Source: Archangium sp. | GTDB lineage: Bacteria; Myxococcota; Myxococcia; Myxococcales; Myxococcaceae | Length of the DNA stretch: 11,054 bases | Direction: 5' to 3' | NCBI GenBank assembly: GCA_031367385.1 | Contig: JANLPS010000114.1 | Location: forward strand, 1-11,054 | Shown here: in pieces, positions 261 to 11,054 of the stretch | Position numbering within the stretch: the first letter of the stretch is position 1 | How the letters are laid out: every line of letters begins with the position of its first letter | Translations under genes and position numbers: made by a program | The notes under the pieces: generated by a model | The model's database searches: none | Seen by the model: only the letters and a program-made list of their open reading frames with translations | Told to the model about the DNA's origin: nothing

Positions 261-1025
261 TTGAGCTTTCCCCTCGACCCGGCGCAGACGGCCACCTTCA
301 GCTTGGGCCCCGCGACCGCGAAGTCGGCGGTGCTGTTGCTCCACGGTTTCACCGGCAGCCCCTGGGAGGTTCGCCCGCTCGCCGAAGCCCTCGCCGCGCG
401 CGGCCACCACGTGCTCGTGCCCCGCTTGCCAGGCCACGGCACCGTGCCCGAGGCGATGCTCTGGGCCGGCTGGCGCGACTGGCTCGAAGGCGCCGAGAGC
501 GCGTTGAGCCAGCTCAAGACCTTCGATGAAGTCTCGGTCGGCGGCCTCTCGATGGGAGCCCTGCTGGCCCTCATTCTCGCCGGCCGTCACCACAGCCGGG
601 TCTCGAAGCTGGTGCTCCTCGCGCCGGTGCTCGCGCTCCAAGCCAGAGAAGCCAAGCTGCTGCGCCTGCTGCGCCACCGCAACTTCGGTCTGCTCAACGA
701 CCGGTGGGTGCCCAAGACCAGCACCGACCTCGAAGACGACGAGGTGCGTGCGCAGTCTCCGATGCTCTCGCGCTACCCGGCCAATCGGCTGCTCGACCTG
801 TTCACGCTGCAAGACATCGCCAAGCTCGCCGTGCCGTTGGTGAGGCAGCCCACCTTCATCGCGGCCGCGGTGAACGACCACGTGGTCTCGCTCGAGCGCA
901 TCGAGCAGCTGCACCGCGAGATACCCGCGTCGCGTTTTCTGCTGCTGCAGCGCGGGTTTCACATTCTGCCTCGCGACACCGACCGGGCGCTGCTGCTCTC
1001 TGAAGTGAGTGCGTTTCTGGGCTGA
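261..1025 (+). CDS. Alpha/beta-fold hydrolase, carboxylesterase/monoacylglycerol-lipase (Est30/YvaK-like)
   Basis: LLHGFTGSP oxyanion motif, PRLPGHG, nucleophile elbow GLSMG (GxSxG), acid in NDHVV, catalytic His in GFHILP. TTG start is somewhat uncertain. Confidence 0.9.
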   Translation: MSFPLDPAQTATFSLGPATAKSAVLLLHGFTGSPWEVRPLAEALAARGHHVLVPRLPGHGTVPEAMLWAGWRDWLEGAESALSQLKTFDEVSVGGLSMGALLALILAGRHHSRVSKLVLLAPVLALQAREAKLLRLLRHRNFGLLNDRWVPKTSTDLEDDEVRAQSPMLSRYPANRLLDLFTLQDIAKLAVPLVRQPTFIAAAVNDHVVSLERIEQLHREIPASRFLLLQRGFHILPRDTDRALLLSEVSAFLG

Positions 1026-1118
1026 AAGCGAAGGTGGGTGGGGGTGTGCGAGCCGCCGCGAGAACGGGTGGGCGCCGCGATTGGCGGAAGAGCGGCGTGA
1101 GCCACTAGGTTTCGTCTC

Positions 1119-1955
1119 GTGATGCCGCGACGAAAGCTCCTGACCGCCCTGGCAGCCTCGACCTTCGTGGTGCCGCGGTATGCCCGAGCCGAGCGCAAGC
1201 TCATCGACCGGGAGTTCTTCGAGGTGACCCACCTCGACATGTACCTGACCTCGCTCGACCCGGCGCACGACGGCACCGTGATTGGGCAGCTCTCAGACCT
1301 CCACATCGGCAGCGGCGTGCCTGACGGCCGGGTCATCAGCGCGGTGCGGGCGATGAACGAGGCCGCTCCCGACTTGGTGATGCTCACCGGAGACTTCGTG
1401 ACCACCAAGCGCGACCCCACCGAGCGCGTGCCGCAGCTGCTCGGGTCTCTCAAAGCCCCCTCATTCGCCGTGCTCGGCAACCATGACCACTGGTCGCACC
1501 CCACCGAGCTGCGCCATGGCCTCGAGCAGGTCGGCATGACCGTGCTGCAGAACGAGAACACCGCCATTCGGCACCGCGGAGTCGATTTTCGCATCATCGG
1601 CATCGACGACAGCACCACGCAGAACGACGACGTGCCGCGGGCCTTCAAGGGCGCCGGCACCGGCTCTCGCGTGGTGCTGACCCACACCCCGGCCTGCGCG
1701 CAGAAGCTCCCCGCGTGGGAAGACGTGCTCTGCCTGTCGGGCCACACCCACGGCGGCCAGTGGGACGTGCCGGGCCTCACCTCGGGCCTCTTTCGCCGCG
1801 CAGGCCAGCCCTGGTACCGCGGGCACTACCCCGTTCGGGGCAACCAGCTCTTCGTCAACCGCGGCCTGGGCTTCGGCAAAGGCACCCGCTTGCCGCGCAT
1901 CAACTCAGACCCAGAGTTGACGCTGATCACCCTCCATCGCCTCGAACCCAGCTGA
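1119..1955 (+). CDS. Calcineurin-like metallophosphoesterase (YkuE/YaeI-like) with probable Tat signal peptide
   Basis: All five motifs present: SDLH, TGDFV, LGNHD, LTHTP, SGHTHGGQ, plus NRGLG. N-terminus PRRKLLTALAAS...YARA. Start is GTG 1119 or ATG 1122. Confidence 0.92.
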   Translation: MMPRRKLLTALAASTFVVPRYARAERKLIDREFFEVTHLDMYLTSLDPAHDGTVIGQLSDLHIGSGVPDGRVISAVRAMNEAAPDLVMLTGDFVTTKRDPTERVPQLLGSLKAPSFAVLGNHDHWSHPTELRHGLEQVGMTVLQNENTAIRHRGVDFRIIGIDDSTTQNDDVPRAFKGAGTGSRVVLTHTPACAQKLPAWEDVLCLSGHTHGGQWDVPGLTSGLFRRAGQPWYRGHYPVRGNQLFVNRGLGFGKGTRLPRINSDPELTLITLHRLEPS

Positions 1956-2037
1956 CCCGTTGAGCACGGGCGGGTGGGTCCTTTGACGACACCTAGGCAC
2001 TGGCACCGCACCCCCTCTCGCGTAAAACTGGGCCGGC

Positions 2038-3372
2038 GTGCGCCCGGTGACCCTCATGCTGTTGGCACTGGGCTGCGGCGTCGCCGACCCCGCGCCGGTG
2101 CCAGAAGCCTTCACCCGGCGTGACCCCATTCTCTCGGCCACCGCTGACACAACGACGAATTCGGTCTTCTTGCTCGACCTGCGCTTCGACAATGGGCACG
2201 CCGCCGTCTGCTCGGCGACGCTGATCAGCCCCCGGGTGTTGGCGACCGCCGCGCATTGCCTCGACCCCTCGCGCGAGGGCGCTGCCTCGATGACCGTCAA
2301 AGCCACCAACAAGGCCGACGACTCGAACCTCAAAGCCAGTGACTTCATCGCCGGCACCATGCTCGCACGCCACCCCTCGTACCCCGCGGTGATGGGCGCC
2401 GACCTGGGGCTCATCTTGCTCGCCAGCGCACCCGTGGGAGTCACCCCGGTGCAGCTCCAACGCACGCCCCCCGGGTCGTGGGTGGGTCAGCCCTTGCGCG
2501 TGGTGGGCTACGGCCGAACCGCCGCGGGCACCTCTGACAGTGGCACCCGCCGCACTGGCAACGTCACGGTCAGCTCTGCCAACGCCGATTCACTCGAGTT
2601 CGGCACCGCGGGCGCGACTGGCATCTGCTCGGGTGATTCAGGCGGCCCCGGCTTCTTCTCCCAGGGCGGCGTCGAGCGAATCGCCGGAGTGCACTCCTAC
2701 GTCATCTCGGCCGCCTGCGGCATCGGCGACGACGTGCGCATCGACACCCACCTCGCTTTCATCGACGCCTTCATCGCCGCCAACGACGCCGCGACCTGCG
2801 GGGCTGACGGCCGGTGCCTGGCTGGGTGCACGCCTGCCGACGTCGATTGCCCGAAGTGCACCAGCGATGGCCGTTGCGATGCCAACTGCGCCACGCCCGA
2901 CCCCGATTGCCCGAAATGCGTCGCCGATGCGTTCTGCGACACCACCTGTGCGAGCGACCCCGACTGCGCGCCGATCTGCACCACCGATGGCGTGTGCAAC
3001 AAGGCCTGTGCGTCAGACCCCGACTGCACCGCGGCGTGCGCGACCGAAGACTCCGTTTGCTCGAGCGACTGCCCCGTCGTCGACCCCGATTGCCTCACCG
3101 ACGGCGACGTCTGCACCGACCCGAATCAATGCGCGACCCGGGTGTGCCTGGCCGACGCGCGTGGCTACTCGACCTGCTCGCGCACCTGCGACTCGAGCGC
3201 GCGCTGCCAGCGTCAGATGATCTGCGAGGGTGGGTTCTGCCGGGTGCCGGTCAGCGACGCGCTCGATGGAGGGAATGGCACCTCGGTGCGAGGAGGCTGC
3301 TCCGTCGCTCCTGGAGTGCTCGGGTTGCTGGCCGTGGCGTGGCTGTTGGCTCGACGCCGCACGACCTCATGA
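2038..3372 (+). CDS. Secreted S1 (chymotrypsin-clan) serine protease with Cys/Asp-rich repeats and MYXO-CTERM-type C-terminal anchor
   Basis: Catalytic triad motifs TAAHC, DLGLI and CSGDSGGP. Lipoprotein-like N-terminus LMLLALGC. C-terminus GGCSVAPGVLGLLAVAWLLARRR (GC + TM helix + Arg cluster). Confidence 0.92.
   Translation: MRPVTLMLLALGCGVADPAPVPEAFTRRDPILSATADTTTNSVFLLDLRFDNGHAAVCSATLISPRVLATAAHCLDPSREGAASMTVKATNKADDSNLKASDFIAGTMLARHPSYPAVMGADLGLILLASAPVGVTPVQLQRTPPGSWVGQPLRVVGYGRTAAGTSDSGTRRTGNVTVSSANADSLEFGTAGATGICSGDSGGPGFFSQGGVERIAGVHSYVISAACGIGDDVRIDTHLAFIDAFIAANDAATCGADGRCLAGCTPADVDCPKCTSDGRCDANCATPDPDCPKCVADAFCDTTCASDPDCAPICTTDGVCNKACASDPDCTAACATEDSVCSSDCPVVDPDCLTDGDVCTDPNQCATRVCLADARGYSTCSRTCDSSARCQRQMICEGGFCRVPVSDALDGGNGTSVRGGCSVAPGVLGLLAVAWLLARRRTTS
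2797..3093 (+). repeat. Five tandem 60-nt (20-aa) Cys-rich coding repeats, consensus CxxDGxCxxxCxx(x)DPDC
   Basis: First Cys codons at 2797, 2857, 2917, 2977 and 3037. Units: CGADGRCLAGCTPADVDCPK / CTSDGRCDANCATPDPDCPK / CVADAFCDTTCASDPDCAPI / CTTDGVCNKACASDPDCTAA / CATEDSVCSSDCPVVDPDC. Confidence 0.93.
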
Positions 3373-3386
3373 TCATCGGTACGCCC

Positions 3387-3536
3387 TTAGATTGACGCGC
3401 GCGGAGGCGTCGCTGCCGGCTTCGTCACAGGCAACTCGACCGCGACCAACACGGTTTGATAGCCGCCGATAACCGCCAATCGCTTCACCTCAGCGATGCC
3501 CCCAGTGCCGATGCGTACGACTTGTCCGTCGGTCAT
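3387..3536 (-). CDS. Small hypothetical protein, 49 aa (below ORF-track cutoff)
   Basis: ATG 3536 to TAA 3387: MTDGQVVRIGTGGIAEVKRLAVIGGYQTVLVAVELPVTKPAATPPRASI. Beta-strand-like pattern; stop lies 14 nt from the convergent protease stop. No clear Shine-Dalgarno (SD) sequence. Confidence 0.4.
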   Translation of the reverse strand: MTDGQVVRIGTGGIAEVKRLAVIGGYQTVLVAVELPVTKPAATPPRASI

Positions 3537-3597
3537 TTGGCTGGTTTACGAGGCCAAAACGGTGTTGTCACGCCTCCGGCCAATCCGCATGAAAATC

Positions 3598-3648
3598 TGT
3601 AAATCAACAGCTGTTGTAAATTCGTTAACGCTTCAAATTGTAAATTCG
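3598..3648. promoter_or_regulatory. AT-rich tract with direct repeats (TGTAAAT x3; TTGTAAATTCG x2) and palindrome CAACAGCTGTTG; candidate protein-binding site
   Basis: TGTAAAT at 3598, 3615 and 3639. TTGTAAATTCG at 3614-3624 and 3638-3648. Perfect 12-bp palindrome at 3605-3616. 19/60 G+C over 3591-3650 in a high-GC context. Confidence 0.45.
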
Positions 3649-3649
3649 G

Positions 3650-4130
3650 TCGGGCGACGGCGATGGCGCCGAGGGTCGCGAAGCCGGCGAGCACGGCCAC
3701 CGAAGGCCAACTCGCCAAGGCGAGGGCAATCGCTCCGCTGAGGTGACTCCGCGCGCGAAAGCCCCCGGAGGCGCTCACCAACTGTCGCAACGTTGCGACA
3801 ATAATGTCACTTCTGACTTTACAAAATTGTCCCATCGTTGGGACAGCTGGCCTCGCCGACGGGTTCTCGCGCCCGAGAGCGCTGCTGCTCCACTGCCCCG
3901 TCGAGCCACGCGGTGCTCCATTAACCCGAAGGCGAGCAGGGCCGTTGTCGCCCGGGGCTCACGTCGCCAAGCCACAGCGTCAGCAGCAGCAGCAGCACCG
4001 CGCGAAAGGTGTGAACGAGGTGATCGCGCTTGAAGGCTGAGCGGGCGAACAGCGTGTACTTCCGCAGGGGAGCGTCGATGGCTCCAGCCACTGACAACAG
4101 ACCAAGGCTCACGGGTAGCAGGTCGAGCAC
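3650..4130 (-). pseudogene. Possible degraded/frameshifted membrane-protein gene, or a 69-aa small membrane ORF at 3921-4130
   Basis: Hydrophobic GC3-rich segments in different frames: VLDLLPVSLGLLSVAGAID...FRAVLLLLLTL (3921-4130 frame), AWRREPRATTALLAFGL (3775-3975 frame) and GAIALALASWPSVAVLAGFATLGAIAVARP (3533-3835 frame). Confidence 0.25.
3778..3850. repeat. 30-bp imperfect inverted repeat whose arms each contain an 18-bp palindrome (TGT-N12-ACA); candidate tandem operator/enhancer or element remnant
   Basis: TGTCGCAACGTTGCGACA (3783-3800, perfect) and TGTCCCATCGTTGGGACA (3828-3845, one mismatch). Arms 3778-3807 and 3821-3850 match 24/30 as an inverted repeat. Confidence 0.8.
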
Positions 4131-4140
4131 GGGGCCGGGC

Positions 4141-5028
4141 TCACAGCCGGTGCCCAGAGAGCGCTTCGAACACCGAGATGACCGCCCCGATGTCTTGCTC
4201 ACCTTTGCCGGCGGCGCGGGCCAGGTTGTAGGTCTCTCGCAGCGACGAGGCCGTCGGAGTCGGCACTTTGTTGGCTGCCGCGTTCTCCAAAAACAGCGAC
4301 AGGTCTTTGTGCATCAGGTCGATTGAAAAGTGCGTCGCGAAGTCATGCGCGAGGAGCGTGGGCCCCTTGAAGTCGTAATACGGCGAGCGAAACCCAGAGG
4401 CCTGCACGACTTCAATCAGCTTCTTCGGGTCGACGCCGGCCTTCGAGGTGAGCAGCAACCCCTCTGAAAACGCCTGCAGCATCGCGGCGATCATCACGTT
4501 GCCCGCGAGCTTGACCTGAGTGCCAGCTCCGACGGGGCCGCAGTGAATGACCTTCTCACCCACCGCCGCGAAGATCGGGTTCGCGCGCGCCAGCGTGGCC
4601 TCGCTCGCGCCGGTCATCATCACCAGCGTGCCCTTCTCGGCGCCGCCCTTCGAGCCCGTCACCGGGGCATCGGCGAAGTCGACTCCCTTCGCCGCGAACG
4701 CCGCCTCGAGCTGCTTCACCAGCGGCACCGACACCGTCGAGAAGTCGATGTACAGCTGGCCCTTCTTCGCGCCCTCGAGCAGGCCGTTCGGGCCCAATGC
4801 CACGCTCGTCAGCGCACCCACATCGGCGACGCAGGTGCAAAACGCGTCGACCCCCGCGGCCAACGCAGCCGGTGACGACGCCACCGAAATGCCCTGTGCT
4901 TTCAAGGCCTCAGCCGGGGCGGGAGACCGGTTCCACACCGTGACGTCGAAGCCCTTCTTCTTCAGGTTCGCGGCCATACGGCTGCCCATCAAACCCAAGC
5001 CACAAAACCCGATTTTCAAGAGGCTCAT
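4141..5028 (-). CDS. NAD(P)-dependent beta-hydroxyacid dehydrogenase (3-hydroxyisobutyrate dehydrogenase / tartronate semialdehyde / glyoxylate reductase family)
   Basis: Rossmann motif IGFCGLGLMG, WNRS, DFSTV, substrate motif DAPVTGS, catalytic Lys in VKLAGN, C-terminal FSIDLMHKDL. Exact substrate cannot be assigned. Confidence 0.93.
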   Translation of the reverse strand: MSLLKIGFCGLGLMGSRMAANLKKKGFDVTVWNRSPAPAEALKAQGISVASSPAALAAGVDAFCTCVADVGALTSVALGPNGLLEGAKKGQLYIDFSTVSVPLVKQLEAAFAAKGVDFADAPVTGSKGGAEKGTLVMMTGASEATLARANPIFAAVGEKVIHCGPVGAGTQVKLAGNVMIAAMLQAFSEGLLLTSKAGVDPKKLIEVVQASGFRSPYYDFKGPTLLAHDFATHFSIDLMHKDLSLFLENAAANKVPTPTASSLRETYNLARAAGKGEQDIGAVISVFEALSGHRL

Positions 5029-5042
5029 GCCGTGGCCTTAGC

Positions 5043-5087
5043 AGGCTGACGAGAAGCGCGCTCCGGTCCGTCGCTTCTCATCAACCT
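5043..5087 (-). promoter_or_regulatory. 16-bp stem-loop in the 5' leader of the dehydrogenase gene / divergent intergenic region
   Basis: Arms AGGCTGACGAGAAGCG (5043-5058) and CGCTTCTCATCAACCT (5072-5087), 13-nt loop. The two DNA mismatches are G-U pairs on the minus-strand RNA. Confidence 0.55.
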
Positions 5088-5134
5088 CCTCCACCGCTCG
5101 CCACCGTTCAAAACCTTGTAAGGTGCCCCCTCGC

Positions 5135-5341
5135 ATGAAGCTTCGACTTCCCTTTCGCAAAGAAAACTCCAGCGCGGCGCAGCGCGAGCGTGAGGAGCAA
5201 TTGCAAAAGGCCGTCGCCGACGGGCTCCGCACCCTGGGCGTGATGTTTCAGCGCGCTGCTGACTTCATCGAGAAGAAGCGGCTCGAGAAGCAGGGCTACG
5301 ACAAGCAGGGTCGTTTTCTCGAACGAACGCCGCGCCGCTAA
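5135..5341 (+). CDS. Small basic helical hypothetical protein (68 aa)
   Basis: MKLRLPFRKENSSAAQREREEQLQKAVADGLRTLGVMFQRAADFIEKKRLEKQG...; GC3-rich codons; ends 10 nt before the next gene. ATG 5135 preferred over GTG 5123. Confidence 0.7.
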   Translation: MKLRLPFRKENSSAAQREREEQLQKAVADGLRTLGVMFQRAADFIEKKRLEKQGYDKQGRFLERTPRR

Positions 5342-5351
5342 AACGAGACCA

Positions 5352-6677
5352 GTGCTCTACAAAATCGTTCGAGCCATCGCGTCACTGGTACTGCGGCAAT
5401 TCTTTCGAATCGGGCCACCGGTCGACCTCTTTCGCGCGCTGCACACCACCGGGCCCGTCATCTTCGTCGGCAACCACCCCAACGGGCTCATCGACCCCGG
5501 GCTGGTCGCGATTCTGGCCGAACGCCACGTGACGTTTCTGGCGAAGGCGCCGCTCTTCAAGATGCCGCTGCTGGGGCCCATTCTCAAAGGCATCGACGCG
5601 CTGCCGGTCTTTCGCAAACAAGACGGAGCGAACACCGCCGCCAACGACAGCACCCTCACCGCCGCGGTCTCTGCGCTGGTCGAAGGGCGAGCGATCACGA
5701 TTTTCCCTGAAGGCAAAAGCCACTCCGAGCCGCAGCTCTCGGCGCTCAAGACCGGGTGCGCCCGCATCGCGCTCGACGCGGTTCGCCAAGGGGCCGCCGT
5801 GCGCATCGTGCCGATCGGGCTCACCTACGGCGAGAAGAACCGCTTCAAGAGCCGGGTGCACATCGAGGTCGCCGCGCCCATCGACGCCACGGCCTTCGCC
5901 CCAAAGCCCGGAGCAGACGCGTTCGAAGCCGCCAAGGCGCTCACCCAGGCCATCGCCGCGTCGCTGCGCCAGGTCACCTTGAACTTGGAGCAGTGGGAAG
6001 ACCTGCCGATCATCGAGACCGCCGAGTCGCTCTACGCCCTCAAGCAGGGTGACGACGCCGGCAACCCCGAGCGCCACCGCGCGTTCGCCAAGGGCATGGC
6101 TCTGCTGCGCGATGAGCAACCCGAACGCTTCGAAGCCCTCAAACGACAGGTCGCCTCGTTTCGACGCCGGCTCGATTTGGTGCAGGTCTCCGCGAAGGAG
6201 CTCACCTTCGCCTACCGCCCCGCGACCGTGGTGACCTTCGCGCTGCGCAACCTGCTCTGGCTGCTCGGGCTGCCGGTGTTTCTGCTCGGCATGGTGCTCT
6301 TCACCATTCCGTACTGGGTGCCGATCACGTTGACCCACGTGATGAAGACCGAAGACGACGTGCAGTCGACGGTGAAGGTGGTGGCGTTGATGGTGCTCGC
6401 GCCGTTCTGGTGGGCGGTGCTGACCGTGACCGCGTTCTTCTTCGGCGGCGCAGGGTGGGCCCTCGCGATGTTCTTCGCCGCGCTGCCCCTGGCGTTGTTC
6501 ACCCGCTGGTACTTCGAGCGCCGCCTGGCTGCCTTGCACGACGCCCGAACGTTCTTCGTCTTCTGGAGCCGCGACCGCCTCAAATCGACGCTCCTGGCCG
6601 AGGGAGAGACCCTCTCGGCCGAGATCAACCGGGTCGCCGACGAGCTCCGCCCACGGGTCACTGCCGCCCAAGATTGA
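5352..6677 (+). CDS. Lysophospholipid/glycerol-3-phosphate acyltransferase (PlsC superfamily) with C-terminal transmembrane helices
   Basis: HxxxxD motif NHPNGLID, FLAKAPLF, PVFR, IFPEG block, LKTGCARIA, IVPIGL; several hydrophobic helices in the C-terminal third. Confidence 0.92.
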   Translation: MLYKIVRAIASLVLRQFFRIGPPVDLFRALHTTGPVIFVGNHPNGLIDPGLVAILAERHVTFLAKAPLFKMPLLGPILKGIDALPVFRKQDGANTAANDSTLTAAVSALVEGRAITIFPEGKSHSEPQLSALKTGCARIALDAVRQGAAVRIVPIGLTYGEKNRFKSRVHIEVAAPIDATAFAPKPGADAFEAAKALTQAIAASLRQVTLNLEQWEDLPIIETAESLYALKQGDDAGNPERHRAFAKGMALLRDEQPERFEALKRQVASFRRRLDLVQVSAKELTFAYRPATVVTFALRNLLWLLGLPVFLLGMVLFTIPYWVPITLTHVMKTEDDVQSTVKVVALMVLAPFWWAVLTVTAFFFGGAGWALAMFFAALPLALFTRWYFERRLAALHDARTFFVFWSRDRLKSTLLAEGETLSAEINRVADELRPRVTAAQD

Positions 6678-6765
6678 GTGAATTCAGGCGCTTGTGCGAG
6701 GCCCGGCAACTTTCTACGCTGCCCAGCGACAATTCTCGAAATCTGAGACTGCAAGGAAACCAGAA

Positions 6766-7257
6766 ATGCCCGCAACCGTGACCTCGATGAACCAAGCCCA
6801 GCTCGCCTCTGCGTTGAGTGAGCTCGAAGTGGCGCTCCGAGAGGGCGAAGCCGAGCTCAAGCAGAAACCCGACCAGTACCAGATGGTGAAGACGCTCTAC
6901 ACCGAGCTCAAGAAGATGAAGCCTGGGCAGACCCCCAGCGCGAAGGTGACCACCTTGCTGCAGTCGTTCTTGAAGAAGCAGCTCGACGAAGAAATCAGAG
7001 ACCAGAACAAGCTGCTGGCCAGCTCGCGCACATCGGGCAGCGGCCCGGTCATCAAAGCCGTGAGCGAGGCCCACAAGGCGACCTTGAATGCGTTGTCGGT
7101 CGCACGCGATGGCGTCGCCGCGCTGACTCCGAGCTTGTCTAACGACGTGGCCGCGGGCACTGGCATTCGCATGAACAACGCGAACCAGAGCGCCGAGCGT
7201 GCCCTGCAGAACGCCGAGGCCGCCAAGGTGTTCGGTCCTGTGCCCGCCAAGAAATGA
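6766..7257 (+). CDS. Hypothetical alpha-helical protein (163 aa), apparent paralogue of 7951-8661
   Basis: SD-like AAGGA at 6753-6757 before ATG 6766 (preferred to the track's 6694 start); GC3-rich codons; stop overlaps the next start (ATGA at 7254-7257). Confidence 0.8.
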   Translation: MPATVTSMNQAQLASALSELEVALREGEAELKQKPDQYQMVKTLYTELKKMKPGQTPSAKVTTLLQSFLKKQLDEEIRDQNKLLASSRTSGSGPVIKAVSEAHKATLNALSVARDGVAALTPSLSNDVAAGTGIRMNNANQSAERALQNAEAAKVFGPVPAKK

Positions 7258-7943
7258 ACGCTGACTTCACCAAGCGCCACACGCTGCTGATGTTCAGCGG
7301 CGGCATCGACAGCCTCTTCACCTTGCACCAGCTGCTCACCGAGACCGACGACGTGGTGTGGGCGCACCACGTGAACCTGGTCAACCGCGAGGGCCGACAC
7401 CGGGCCGAGTCTGAGGCCTGTGGCAACATCGTCGCCTGGCTCACCGAGCGCGTACGCCGCTTTCGCTACACCGAGAGCACCCTCGACCACAGCGCGTTCG
7501 CGATGTTCGGGCGCGACGTGACGATGGTCGCCTTCGAGGCGGGCCTGGTGGTGCAGAACGCCCACGTGCAGTGGAAGCGCGGCTTCGACCGGTGGATGTT
7601 GGGGTACTGCAAAGAAGAGTCAGAAGAGGTGCTGCCCAGCGGCACCGTCGCCGACTCGTCGAACCGGCGCTCATTGACCGAGCAAGCGGTGGCCTTGAGC
7701 GCCCACCCGATGGTGCCCCCGAAGTTGTTTCGCCCGGAGCTGCTCGCCAAGCAAGCGCAGATCGAGGCGATGCCCGCCGAGCTCGTGCAACTGGCGTGGA
7801 CGTGTCGTCAGCCCCGGTGGGAGGCAGCGGTCGCCACCGAATGCGGGGTCTGCAAGACCTGCAAGCTCATGGGGCCGATTCGCGCCAACCTGGCCACCAA
7901 AGGCTACCCGCTGGTCTCGCCCACGCTGACCGTGCCGGCCTGA
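7254..7943 (+). CDS. Divergent QueC-like PP-loop ATP pyrophosphatase with C-terminal 4-Cys zinc site
   Basis: PP-loop FSGGIDS; C-terminal AWTC-x12-CGVCKTC resembling QueC TxSC...CGxCxxC; PELLAKQAQI resembling PL...K..I. Canonical QueC YGQ, VPxRN (here FGRD) and YPDC motifs are absent. Confidence 0.8.
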   Translation: MNADFTKRHTLLMFSGGIDSLFTLHQLLTETDDVVWAHHVNLVNREGRHRAESEACGNIVAWLTERVRRFRYTESTLDHSAFAMFGRDVTMVAFEAGLVVQNAHVQWKRGFDRWMLGYCKEESEEVLPSGTVADSSNRRSLTEQAVALSAHPMVPPKLFRPELLAKQAQIEAMPAELVQLAWTCRQPRWEAAVATECGVCKTCKLMGPIRANLATKGYPLVSPTLTVPA

Positions 7944-7950
7944 GCAGCGA

Positions 7951-8661
7951 CTACTTCTTGCCGTTCTTCTTCGGGTCGGCCTTGGCGTTCGCCCACTGGG
8001 GTGCGCTGAACGGTGCGGTCTTACCAGGCGCGGCCTTCGCGGGTGCCGGCGCGGCTGCCTTGGGCGCTTTGCGGCTGGGAGGAGGCGTGGCGTCGGGGTC
8101 TTGCGCTGAGACCGCTGGCATCGAGGTCAGTGAGGTGCGTGGCGGGGGGGCGGCGTCTTTCACGGCAGGTACTGCGGTGAGCGACTTTCGCATGGCGGTC
8201 GTCAACGCTGCCGGAGGCGGCTGGGCCTCGCCCTGCTTGAGCTCGAGCAGCGAGCTGCGCGCGCGGTCTGAGGCTGACTCCATGTGTCGCATTGCTTGAG
8301 CCGCCGCCGGGCCCGTGCCGGTCGTCGCCTTCTTGGCCTCGTCGAGTACCGCCAGCACGTTCTTGAGGGCCTTCTGCGCCTTCGCCGCCTTGGGGTCTTT
8401 CTTCACCAGCGGCTCAAGCGAGTCGATCTTCTGCTGGTACGCGGCCTTCTTCAGGTCGAGCTGCCAGATGAAGAGGCTCTTCAGCGTCTTTTGCGACGCG
8501 GGCGAGACCTGCCCCGTAGGTGAGCTCTTCAGCTCCCGCAGCAGCGACTTCATTTCTTGCAGCTGCTTGGGCGCCGTCTTGCTGAGCGTTGGTGTCTGCT
8601 CGATGAGCATCTGCTCGAGGTTCTTGATGGCGGCGGCGTTCGCCGGCGGGTTTGCAACCAT
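7951..8661 (-). CDS. Hypothetical alpha-helical protein (236 aa) with Pro/Ala/Lys-rich tail, apparent paralogue of 6766-7257
   Basis: ATG 8661 with upstream AAAGG; strong coding codon bias; N-terminal ~145 aa aligns by eye with the 163-aa protein; tail PPPSRKAPKAAAPAPAKAAPGK...PKKNGKK. Confidence 0.8.
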   Translation of the reverse strand: MVANPPANAAAIKNLEQMLIEQTPTLSKTAPKQLQEMKSLLRELKSSPTGQVSPASQKTLKSLFIWQLDLKKAAYQQKIDSLEPLVKKDPKAAKAQKALKNVLAVLDEAKKATTGTGPAAAQAMRHMESASDRARSSLLELKQGEAQPPPAALTTAMRKSLTAVPAVKDAAPPPRTSLTSMPAVSAQDPDATPPPSRKAPKAAAPAPAKAAPGKTAPFSAPQWANAKADPKKNGKK

Positions 8662-8728
8662 TGGGCGATGAGACCTTTCAAATGGCGTCGGGCGCTAAAG
8701 CGTACCACCGGAGGAACCAGCGTTCGAC

Positions 8729-9046
8729 TCAGTCGTAGCGAACTTCGACCAGATAGGGGCCGAGCTCGAAGGCCTGCGAATTGACGATGGTGGGCTCACC
8801 CTCCTCGACCTGTGCGCGGTTGACTCGAACGGGGGCCCCCGGCTCGCACCGAACCAGCGTGCGCTGGCCGCGGCGAATGACCGAGGCGTGTTTCGGGGCC
8901 AGCCCTTTGAGCACGAGCTCATTGGTCTTGGCCGAGCCGATGTAAAACTCGGGCAGCTTCGGGTCGACGCCCTTGCGCGGGTTCACGCGATGCTTCGACG
9001 TCAGGCCCGTTTCGCTGTTGGTCACTGAAACCAAAAAGGAAGCCAT
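8729..9046 (-). CDS. Stand-alone degenerate FHA-like (YscD-cytoplasmic-like) beta-sandwich protein, 105 aa
   Basis: FYIGS...NELVL...LAPKHASV...VRVN...FELGPYLVEV follows the FHA pattern IGR...DIVL...VSRxHA...TxVNG...IxIG. GGAGG SD lies inside the upstream gene's last codons; 3-nt gap to that gene's stop. Confidence 0.65.
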   Translation of the reverse strand: MASFLVSVTNSETGLTSKHRVNPRKGVDPKLPEFYIGSAKTNELVLKGLAPKHASVIRRGQRTLVRCEPGAPVRVNRAQVEEGEPTIVNSQAFELGPYLVEVRYD

Positions 9047-9049
9047 GGC

Positions 9050-11054
9050 TTAGAGCCCTCCGGCCAAACCGGGAAAGAGGTCTTGATTGGCCAAGTAGAA
9101 GCCACCGAATGAAGGGTGGTAGTCGATGCCGGTGTCGAAGAGCTTGGCCCACAGGGCTGCAGGCCCGCTGCCGACCTGCGCCGTACCGATGCCTTGGTAC
9201 AGCTCGACCGCGCTCGCGCCGCCATAGTTCGCGGGGTTGAGCTCCATGTCGCGCACCAAGCCCCACCACTGCACGCGGTGCGTTTGAACGCCGTGGTGGG
9301 GCGAATCGGCGAAATTCACGTCACGAAAGAGCGCCCCGTCAGAGAGCATCTTCGCCCACTCAGTGTCGGTGTACGGCCTCGGCTCGAGGTCGAGCGCGGG
9401 TTTGAAGCCGGCCTTGGCCTCTGCTGCGCTCAGCTCTGCTTCGAGTGCTTCAGCCGTGCTCACGCCGGTCTCCGCCACTCGCCTTTGCACCGCCCGCTCG
9501 AGCTCTTGGGTGCGAGCGATGGGTCGGGCAGGGTCGTACATGTAACTCGAGATGCCCTCGTACCCGGCACGCTGCGTCGGCGTCAGCGTCTCGGCCCGGT
9601 GGTACCCGCCGATTTCGGGAGCCAACGGCGAGTAGTGACCAGGGGGCGGCTCGGTGCGAGCCAGCGCCGCGTTGGCGCGCGCCAGCTCCTCGGCGGTGCG
9701 TTCGGCGGGTTGCACGACGGCCGCCACTGTGGCTGCGTCGGTGACCGCGGCTTCGACCGCGGCCCCGGCCGGCCGTCGCATGATGAACCCCGGGCTGCCC
9801 GTCGCCATCGGGTCGATGATCTCGAGCTCGGTGAACCCGGCGGCCGCGCGAATCTTGTACGCGGGCGTCGCTCTGATCGCTGCCTCCATGTCTCCGGTCT
9901 CGTTGTAGACGCGAACGTACACCGCCATGTTGGTGTCTTGGAGCGTCGACGCTTTGATCGCCGTGATGCCCGGGTTCTCTTCGAGCACCTTGGCGAAGAG
10001 CTGGCCTGAGACGCCTTGGCCCTGCATCTCGGGCACGACGTCGAGCCCGGTCACCTCGAGCGTGCCAGCCTTGGTGTCCACGATGTACGAGACCTTGCCG
10101 ACCTCCTGGCCCGCCGCGTTTTTGGCGGTCATGTCGTAGTACTGACTGCCCCGAAAATCGGCACTCATCACCCGCTCGGTTTCGAGGGGCGGGGCGGTCA
10201 CCTTCACCGGAGGCACATCGACGACCGGCCTCTCAACGACCGGCGCACGGGCGCCCTCAAGATCGCTTGCCACGCTGCCGGCGCGGCCCGTGCCAGCACC
10301 CCCATCGACGACTTCACCCACGACCGCCCGGCCACCACGTGCACCGGCTTCGAGGCCGGCATCAACGGCCGCATCAACCTCAGCGGCGACACGGCCGCCC
10401 TTCAGCGCGCTCCCTGCCGCCCCAACTGCGACGACGCCGACGGTGTCGGCGACCGCCCCGTAGAAGGCTCTTCGCGCGTCAGCTGCGGAGAGCTCACGGT
10501 CACCCAGCTTCTCGACGTTCTCGTAGAGAGACTTCACGGGGATGACGGTGTTGATTGCTGCGGCTGTGGCACCGAGCGGGTCGGCGACGACGGCGTCGTA
10601 CGCTTTGCCCAAAGCTGCCGCCGTGTCGGCCCGCCGTTGCTCCGCAGTGGTCGTGGCCAGGTACTCGATGCCACGGCTGGTGGCGTCGACCGCGCCGTTG
10701 TATGCGCCCTTCGCTGCGCTCACGACGCCATCGACCGTGGTGCTGGTCACGGCGGTCTTGATGTTGGTGCCAATCGTCGAGATGCGCTGGCCCAAGATGC
10801 CCAGGTACGAGTCGTCGTCGCTCTCCGCGGCCGGGTCGGTTGTGAACCTGCGGCCGGTATTCACCGCACCGGCTGAAAAGCTGCCCTCTTGGGCTCCGCC
10901 AGCGTCATTGAACGCAACCGACGGTATCGAGGTTTGCTGCGCCGCAGGAGGCGGTATCTTCGAGAGCCGGTACGCTTCATAGGCGGCGTCAGAGTCTCTG
11001 CCGCTGTAGTTCTGCCTGACGAAGCTGGCGTAGTCGGCGCCCGAGCCGTTCGGC
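9050..11054 (-). CDS. Large polymorphic-toxin/effector-like protein, 5' end outside the window; GNAT-like domain plus C-terminal His-motif domain (LirA/MavJ/DUF5636-like)
   Basis: The frame stays open upstream of the track's GTG 10864 to the edge (PNGSGADYASFVRQNYSGRDSDAAYEAYRLSKIPPP...). Ala/Gly/Val-rich pre-toxin-like helices; acetyl-CoA motif VVPEMQGQGVSGQL; C-terminal LFRD...HHGVQTHRVQW...LY...LWAKLFD. Confidence 0.75.
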   Translation of the reverse strand, partial: PNGSGADYASFVRQNYSGRDSDAAYEAYRLSKIPPPAAQQTSIPSVAFNDAGGAQEGSFSAGAVNTGRRFTTDPAAESDDDSYLGILGQRISTIGTNIKTAVTSTTVDGVVSAAKGAYNGAVDATSRGIEYLATTTAEQRRADTAAALGKAYDAVVADPLGATAAAINTVIPVKSLYENVEKLGDRELSAADARRAFYGAVADTVGVVAVGAAGSALKGGRVAAEVDAAVDAGLEAGARGGRAVVGEVVDGGAGTGRAGSVASDLEGARAPVVERPVVDVPPVKVTAPPLETERVMSADFRGSQYYDMTAKNAAGQEVGKVSYIVDTKAGTLEVTGLDVVPEMQGQGVSGQLFAKVLEENPGITAIKASTLQDTNMAVYVRVYNETGDMEAAIRATPAYKIRAAAGFTELEIIDPMATGSPGFIMRRPAGAAVEAAVTDAATVAAVVQPAERTAEELARANAALARTEPPPGHYSPLAPEIGGYHRAETLTPTQRAGYEGISSYMYDPARPIARTQELERAVQRRVAETGVSTAEALEAELSAAEAKAGFKPALDLEPRPYTDTEWAKMLSDGALFRDVNFADSPHHGVQTHRVQWWGLVRDMELNPANYGGASAVELYQGIGTAQVGSGPAALWAKLFDTGIDYHPSFGGFYLANQDLFPGLAGGL

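Follow-up and report, generated by a model that had tools for sequence, protein, structure and literature searches.

To our knowledge, protein modification by enzymes of the QueC family has so far been described in just two systems of anti-phage defense, both of which deazaguanylate an N-terminal glycine. According to the available portion of one report, QueC and Cap9, the QueC-fold enzyme of type IV cyclic-oligonucleotide-based antiphage signaling systems (CBASS), adenylate a carboxylate, after which an amine displaces AMP, and the CD-NTase of type IV CBASS starts with the motif M(G/S)G(G/S)GG (10.1101/2025.04.06.647259). In QatABCD, QatC requires an N-terminal MGTS motif of QatB, as stated in the accessible sections of 10.1101/2025.09.03.674047. 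Here we analyze a QueC-like gene, Q (positions 7254–7943, + strand), in an 11,054-nucleotide stretch of Archangium sp. DNA (the window), which is the entire contig JANLPS010000114.1 (C432) of a 7.97 Mb genome with a GC content of 65% (GCA_031367385.1; G000). Q lies between two related genes, A (6766–7257, +) and B (7951–8661, −), near the gene of a large repeat protein (9050–11054, −). On balance, we favor the reading that Q modifies the glutamates of Gly-Glu motifs in the large protein and that A and B are chaperones of that protein rather than substrates of Q. A broader proposal, which we hold with slightly less than even confidence, is that Gly-Glu tags and a QueC-fold writer form a portable system on the outward-facing proteins of phages and bacteria. 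Its putative carriers would be capsids, tail tubes, tail fibers, type IV pilins, repeats-in-toxin (RTX) proteins and myxobacterial polymorphic proteins, and its chemistry would convert protein glutamates to amides, nitriles or amine conjugates.

In the proposed mechanism, Q would activate, at the expense of ATP, the carboxylates of Glu side chains in the Gly-Glu loops or tails of surface proteins. Glu is taken as the activated acid because the ATP and zinc machinery of Q is retained, its base pocket is gone and the enzyme occurs together with flexible tags that contain Glu. The acyl-adenylate step is modeled on the chemistry of QueC and Cap9, and the role of Glu as acceptor is suggested by motif co-occurrence. 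The protein is probably the carboxyl donor. The most likely product would be an amide with ammonia or an amine, possibly methylated next by partner methyltransferases; a nitrile or a cross-link are other possible products. Such a reaction might give exposed proteins an altered surface as a protection against receptors, proteases or defenses. The original prediction, that Q modifies a protein, is one that we share as probable.

Relationship of Q to Canonical QueC

The structural model of Q (predicted local distance difference test score (pLDDT), 90.9) has the QueC structures 2pg3 and 3bl5 as its top Foldseek matches, with a template modeling (TM) score of about 0.55, and QueC is also the best match in profile searches. 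The 229-residue protein keeps the SGGxDS loop, RHxxE, a conserved Lys and four zinc-binding Cys. Its motifs are SGGIDS (15–20), HH (38–39), R48, E52, D88 and K166, followed toward the C-terminus by WTCRxP (182–187) and C197/C200/C203, with a Cys spacing of C-x12-CxxCxxC. Absent are YxQxHxxE, VPxRN and YPDC, which form the QueC signature in the part of Libby et al. available to us (PMC13329287) and all of which are present in the queC of the same genome. Equivalents of QueC residues Y35, R99 and Y131, described as essential in the same text, are likewise missing. It is therefore difficult to regard Q as a spare canonical preQ0 synthase. That reading has in its favor the fold and profile matches, as well as some sources that label Q homologues 7-cyano-7-deazaguanine synthase; the three missing residues, a score against the QueC Pfam model of 19.5 (cutoff, 22) and the canonical queC copy in the genome leave it only a very slight chance.

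In a 39-row tree, which omitted Cap9 and QatC and contains several long branches, 33 members of the Q family stand apart from six canonical QueCs on a long, fully supported branch. The family comprises 1,006 representatives at E values up to 1e-10. The records that hold the nearest relatives of Q bear the names Myxococcaceae, Archangium and Archangiaceae; the nearest non-myxobacterial relatives have 37–47% identity and at times occur as two or three paralogues per locus. By motif or neighborhood, Q fits none of the clusters as far as they are described in the available text of PMC13329287, in which the archaeal clusters 7, 8 and 10 are left unanalyzed; the family may belong to the 1.5% of sequences that fall outside the ten clusters. 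Judged by its sequence, the Q family is distinct from canonical QueC, and Q is very probably not a queuosine enzyme. The loss of motifs and the canonical queC on contig C158 (E 9.5e-73) agree with the earlier placement of Q outside the queuosine pathway. The window is indeed free of queuosine-pathway genes (no que, tgt or dpd gene among the 11 window proteins scanned), so that Q is an orphan locally, but not genome-wide, because of the copy on C158.

Gly-Glu Tags in Proteins Encoded beside Q

Of 208 Myxococcaceae genomes, five contained Q, and the same five were recovered among 401 genomes sampled from the phylum. It is linked to the large repeat protein in all five, although only the two ends of that protein are assembled in G000. 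In the four other genomes (G001, G218, G220 and G225), Q lies directly before the large-protein gene, which is followed by B, with all three genes on the same strand. The repeats of the large protein in these genomes carry hairpin-like tips that read GSGES, GTGEG, GWGES and SGED. The first tip is of the Glu type in three Q-adjacent orthologues and of the Asp type in Q-less G080 (97% complete), whose orthologue has Asp at all four repeat tips. Unrelated neighbors of Q share the motif G-G-E-G or G-[WS]-G-E, often between β-strand-like segments or at the C-terminus; the myxobacterial tips VGWGES and VGSGES, for example, recur as VGWGEE and VGSGEE in an unrelated RTX protein beside Q.

Because the Gly-Glu motif was chosen after the myxobacterial, viral-locus, RTX and pilin data had been viewed, the cultured phages, examined afterward, afford the stronger test. 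Eleven cultured phage records encode Q and represent four distinct types (Muddy, FF47, DS6A and PIS 136), all four of which carry GE tails on structural proteins. The Muddy capsid protein ends GGGSGEGEGESE, and the major tail protein ends GGGGEGEGEGE, its gene lying directly before Q (gp16). Q stands as a lone insert after the major tail gene and ahead of the tail chaperone gene, and no partner enzyme is encoded alongside. FF47 has Q together with tails on its capsid, tail-tube and scaffold proteins, as in Muddy. In their close relatives NoShow and JacoRen57 (capsid protein 75% identical), the major tail gene is followed directly by the tail chaperone gene without Q, and no tails are present on the capsid, tail or scaffold proteins. 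Two related contigs, as well as ReT1v-2 and Eileen, likewise have neither Q nor tails. GE or GGE tails occur in four of the five closest viral contigs. No cultured phage turned up in a search that used the Q of a freshwater phage. The Gly-Glu tags of the Muddy capsid, scaffold and major tail proteins can be seen along with gp16 in NC_022054.2 (L341:2479–3468, 5373–6014 and 6037–6588).

When near-duplicate loci were removed, which left 109 of 149, GGEG occurred 16 times in viral Q loci versus 3.3 expected, and 7 times in other-genome Q loci versus 1.7 expected. Against control loci, it occurs 17 times in 105.9 thousand amino acids (kaa; 32 viral Q loci) versus once in 123.3 kaa (30 loci), or 1.6 versus 0.08 per 10 kaa, whereas GGDG and GGSG are not enriched. 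For GEGE, the viral control carries no information, its loci having been chosen by a GE-repeat DNA pattern. Of 15 RTX proteins near Q, with calcium repeats excluded, 6 contain the strict motif (16 occurrences in 36.1 kaa). The corresponding figures are 2 of 20 for RTX proteins encoded elsewhere in five Q-bearing genomes (3 occurrences in 37.9 kaa) and 3 of 16 for those of five Q-negative genomes (6 occurrences in 43.1 kaa). All three Q-adjacent pilins end in GGE(G/L/AG), versus none of 18 other pilin-like open reading frames in five Q-bearing Saccharibacteria genomes (recovered from 30 loci). An unbiased 4-mer ranking was dominated by homologous neighbors, and no P value is offered because kin are not independent.

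The settings of the wider family are those of surface, secreted and virion proteins, not defense islands. An RTX protein or type I secretion system (T1SS) gene lies within 6 kb of Q in 24 of 31 mostly alphaproteobacterial loci, Saccharibacteria loci combine Q with a methyltransferase and pilin or BNR-repeat proteins, and viral loci combine it with methyltransferase-like genes and virion-like proteins. The expectation of a defense setting is not supported. Among 44 longer matches scanned, Q is fused to HlyC plus a methyltransferase in seven, to a methyltransferase alone in seven and to an Asp/Asn β-hydroxylase in one; several are tandem Q domains. The HlyC–methyltransferase–Q fusions suggest, from their domain order, a multistep tailoring line for RTX proteins. 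Three-domain proteins of this order (HlyC acyltransferase–methyltransferase–QueC-like) are P0040–P0042, P0050, P0060, P0064, P0071 and P0078. The Saccharibacteria operon of a pilin (ending GGEG, GGEL or GGEAG), Q and a methyltransferase is found at L041:1414–3543, L042:5505–7307 and L049:5306–7333, and other Saccharibacteria loci repeat Q with BNR-repeat proteins. A distant Q clade adjoins glycosyltransferases and may have a separate function; at L068, L070, L077 and L087, a glycosyltransferase cluster lies downstream of Q, its first gene bearing GGGGDGEG. At L011:2728–8970, two methyltransferase–Q fusions accompany a ferritin-like gene, an APH-type kinase and a saccharopine-dehydrogenase-fold gene, which we take to be homospermidine-synthase-like. 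These neighbors may point to an amine cosubstrate.

Several of these observations would also fit a different division of labor, in which Q tailors the same surface proteins but Gly-Glu is only a flexible docking tag or linker; Q would then activate a small-molecule acid for transfer to an amine (Lys or the N-terminus) or make a donor for the fused acyl- and methyltransferases. Cap9 itself activates a small molecule and not a protein, according to the available part of 10.1101/2025.04.06.647259. The HlyC and methyltransferase fusions, the saccharopine-dehydrogenase-fold gene and kinase beside some Q loci, and the 9 of 15 Q-near RTX proteins that lack the strict motif are consistent with this alternative. 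However, the excess is Glu-specific, Q in Muddy has no adjoining partner enzyme, and the C-terminal GE tails contain no amine. We regard the docking-tag explanation as unlikely, though it is the main rival.

The proposal that Q modifies Gly-Glu glutamates must also be weighed against a series of contrary observations, since the link between Q and tag is not one-to-one and fails in each direction. Tails are missing from one complete provirus that encodes Q. Among 11 viral records in which a (GE)4 tail is in frame, only two encode Q; the underlying search gave 31 pattern stretches, most of them out of frame, and several records are fragments or giant viruses. One complete phage (L346:10001–11077) encodes a (GE)4-tailed, capsid-sized protein of 358 aa and has no Q; its tail may be served by another writer or a host enzyme. 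A (GD)4-stop control gave seven stretches, two in frame and none accompanied by Q, numbers too small to carry weight. Muddy and FF47 are closely related phages, and in PIS 136 a RimK-like ATP-grasp ligase (L343:8705–9454) overlaps the Q stop and could be the tail-acting enzyme there. GGEG shows no excess in 34 metagenome loci (1 observed versus 1.5 expected), many of which lie by a glycosyltransferase cluster. In addition to the motif-less RTX proteins noted above, two of the six positives are close homologues, and the three tagged pilins are homologous to each other. In G000, the sole repeat tip assembled is VPVSEY, without Gly-Glu, the others falling in the assembly gap. The large protein occurs without a detected Q in three of eight genomes, G080, G223 (87% complete) and G065 (80%), and G223 has the tip GEGET. 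A search for a second QueC-like writer in Q-less genomes returned only canonical queC and generic PP-loop matches.

The tails without Q in 9 of those 11 viral records, the Q-less large proteins and the glycosyltransferase-linked clade might be read to mean that Q is unrelated to its neighbors. Q would then act on a metabolite, glycan or nucleic acid as a passenger of mobile surface-gene islands, with GE tags as independent low-complexity linkers. This idea accords poorly with the finding that, inside a single phage genus, Q and the tails on three separate proteins are either all present or all absent, with the same motif in unrelated carriers and with the fusion of Q to HlyC, a protein-acting enzyme. 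We therefore judge it improbable.

The Myxobacterial Locus and the Proposed Roles of A and B

The convergent A–Q–B layout, originally taken for a three-gene module, is found in only one of the five Q-bearing Myxococcaceae genomes. Since the four others keep Q, the large protein and B on one strand, the layout is, on comparison of gene orders, a local inversion that placed the stop of B beside Q. The details of the arrangement were described correctly: A overlaps Q by ATGA (7254–7257, +), and B converges on Q with 7 bp between the stops (7944–7950), where no terminator-like site was found. On the minus strand, a run of genes that begins with the large protein and continues with an FHA-like gene (8729–9046) ends with B.

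The window holds the 3′ part of the large-protein gene (667 codons, open at the contig end). Its N-terminus is probably encoded at G000:C95:3–608, in a frame that runs off the start of C95, matches the G001 N-terminus at E 6e-25 and has a serine-acetyltransferase-like neighbor in both genomes; we infer the join of C432 to C95. The protein has 1,270–1,280 aa in three of the four other Q-bearing genomes and is in frameshifted pieces in G001, where several frameshifts split the gene (L004:833–5527; assembly error or decay). It matched 13 of 208 genomes, eight of them strongly, and consists of four α/β repeats, a hydrophobic helical region and exchanged C-termini. The alignment suggests a long hairpin-like insert in the repeats. 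Several members have a LysM-like part (weak match), and the variable C-terminal half of the window's protein gives weak GNAT and DUF5636 matches. Orthologues are 69–76% alike overall, whereas the C-termini are unrelated among paralogues and between G000 and G001. This combination of a conserved N-terminal region and exchanged C-terminal domains is one feature of polymorphic toxin systems. None of the C-terminal 300 aa of seven relatives matched Pfam.

Paralogues that end in unrelated domains are found at L213:1000–4593, L212:6297–9587, L211:6316–9744 and L004:3503–5527. One C-terminus, without Pfam support, is presumably akin to an ADP-ribosyltransferase-like toxin tip and another to a C80/caspase-like protease. 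A gene divergent from Q in the g12 genomes (L005:4980–6014; L006:5039–5953), which has no family match, we take to resemble a cell-wall amidase lacking the catalytic Cys. The large protein is probably secreted, though no secretion genes were seen beside the myxobacterial loci, the rest of the genome not having been searched for any. Two loci have a variable gene in the slot downstream of it. Between the large protein and B, this slot holds the FHA-like gene in the window (105 aa; PF16697, E 3.5e-4, below cutoff) and is empty or holds an unrelated 183-aa gene in relatives; the FHA-like protein is possibly an immunity or adaptor protein. The large proteins and their dedicated helical partner apparently constitute an undescribed polymorphic family.

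A (163 aa, helical) and B (236 aa, a five-helix bundle of about 150 aa with a Pro/Ala/Lys-rich tail) are homologous, as the original prediction held. BLASTP alone gives a weak match (23.9 bits), but the local alignment score of 89 was reached by none of 1000 shuffles, and a profile built from 11 B-family proteins without A matched, among 6,986 sequences, only B, A (E 6e-9) and the A orthologue of a relative. On this evidence, A is a divergent paralogue of B; it is restricted to the genus of the window. The structure model of B is a five-helix bundle (pLDDT 71). Assignment of A/B to a known fold was rejected, since the best structural matches (Z 9.0) fall among generic helical bundles, and an ESM Atlas search gave no usable match for B or for the large-protein repeats.

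The family occurs in 7 of 208 genomes, two of which have no detectable Q. All seven are among the eight genomes with a strong large-protein match, and 10 of 13 A/B copies lie no more than one gene from a large-protein gene. For these reasons, B would belong with the large protein, most simply as its chaperone or export factor, and A is likely a chaperone or accessory factor of the same protein. The suggestion that A/B-family genes are conserved neighbors of Q did not hold: among 152 Q loci, B matched only four myxobacterial loci and the window's own, and A only the latter. There was no match at any non-myxobacterial Q locus, whether alphaproteobacterial-type (31 loci), other genome, metagenome or viral.

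These distributions bear on a Qat-like defense module, in which Q would deazaguanylate or otherwise modify A, B or both. The translational coupling of A to Q is compatible with such a module, as is the structural match of Q to Cap9 (9nto; TM 0.55/0.67). An A orthologue in G001, of the same genus, has 48% identity over 132 aa and runs off the end of one contig, while Q begins another; adjacency is possible, and no overlap was found between the two contigs (C529 and C392). The missing ATPase and TatD genes are not decisive because QatB, which is helical, and QatC alone suffice for defense, according to the accessible part of 10.1101/2025.09.03.674047. However, QatB needs its N-terminal Gly motif, and A and B (MPAT and MVAN) and their relatives (MNVA, MNAT, MSPA, MATQ, MTMT, MTSL and MASQ) lack a conserved Gly2. 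The region upstream of Q holds no A in the three g12 genomes, B comes after the large protein in genomes without Q as well, non-myxobacterial Q loci have no A/B match, and the motifs of QatC and Cap9 are absent from Q. A Qat-like role is thus quite improbable, and A and B are probably not substrates of Q. PADLOC returned only a weak QueC match (PDLC00911, E 1.4e-4) and no QatC model. The earlier conclusion that the locus is neither Qat nor CBASS is upheld, with no qatA ATPase or qatD TatD neighbor at the Q loci examined and no CD-NTase with the type IV start motif or Cap10 TGT-like gene among the window proteins scanned.

A sigma-70 promoter scan of the locus gave no sites, terminator predictions were no better than chance, and a plasmid comparison left P0023 unmatched. 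Positions 6000–11054 are contiguous in contigs from two of four public runs, one of which is possibly the source of this DNA. The ordinary neighbors at 261–6677 encode an α/β hydrolase, a metallophosphoesterase, a trypsin-like protease with Cys-rich repeats, a 3-hydroxyisobutyrate/6PG dehydrogenase-like protein and an acyltransferase.

Significance and Comparison with Known Systems

We found no published account of the Q-family context or of GE-tailed virions in a search that covered little of the subscription literature. Our analysis points to a third use of the QueC fold, the tailoring of exposed proteins at a short, portable tag, and there is a fair chance that the family represents a new kind of portable surface-tagging system. 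If the proposal is right, the annotation of some thousand protein clusters, which at present are labeled queuosine enzymes, would change, and Muddy, a therapeutic mycobacteriophage, would carry hundreds of Q-type modifications per virion, which may affect virion stability, host range or antibody recognition of a therapy phage. Q would also offer a small taggable ligase for protein engineering. Muddy versus NoShow or JacoRen57 on M. smegmatis provides a natural control pair in cultured phage.

Canonical QueC (PF06508 cluster 1; 3bl5, 2pg3) shares with Q the fold, SGGxDS, RHxxE, the Lys and the four zinc-binding Cys; Q differs in lacking YxQ, VPxRN and YPDC, in its C-x12-CxxCxxC spacing and in having no queD/queE linkage. 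Cap9 is, like Q, a small QueC-fold PP-loop/zinc enzyme. In the available text of 10.1101/2025.04.06.647259, it joins an ATP-activated carboxylate, as an amide, to a partner protein that bears a Gly-rich motif, a likeness that we propose for Q, and attaches 7-carboxy-7-deazaguanine (CDG) to the N-terminal Gly of the CD-NTase in immunity. Cap9 keeps the QueC motifs (YxQ, RN and YxDC), whereas Q lacks them, has no CD-NTase or TGT-like neighbor and tracks internal or C-terminal Gly-Glu tags. QatC has in common with Q a remodeled QueC active site and a helical partner encoded alongside, but it is about 400 aa long with motifs of its own, versus 229 aa for Q, according to the accessible parts of PMC13329287 and 10.1101/2025.09.03.674047.

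HlyC-type RTX activation resembles Q in that a dedicated modifier is encoded with a T1SS substrate, and some Q homologues are fusions with HlyC. The acyl group that HlyC transfers to Lys comes from acyl-ACP. Unlike HlyC, Q is a predicted ATP pyrophosphatase and is also tied to pilins and virions. The TTLL ATP-grasp enzymes glutamylate or glycylate tubulin tails, in which Glu side chains in flexible, Gly/Glu-rich surface tails are the acceptors. The parallel with Q is one of analogy only, since TTLL enzymes have a different fold, use acyl-phosphate chemistry and are eukaryotic.

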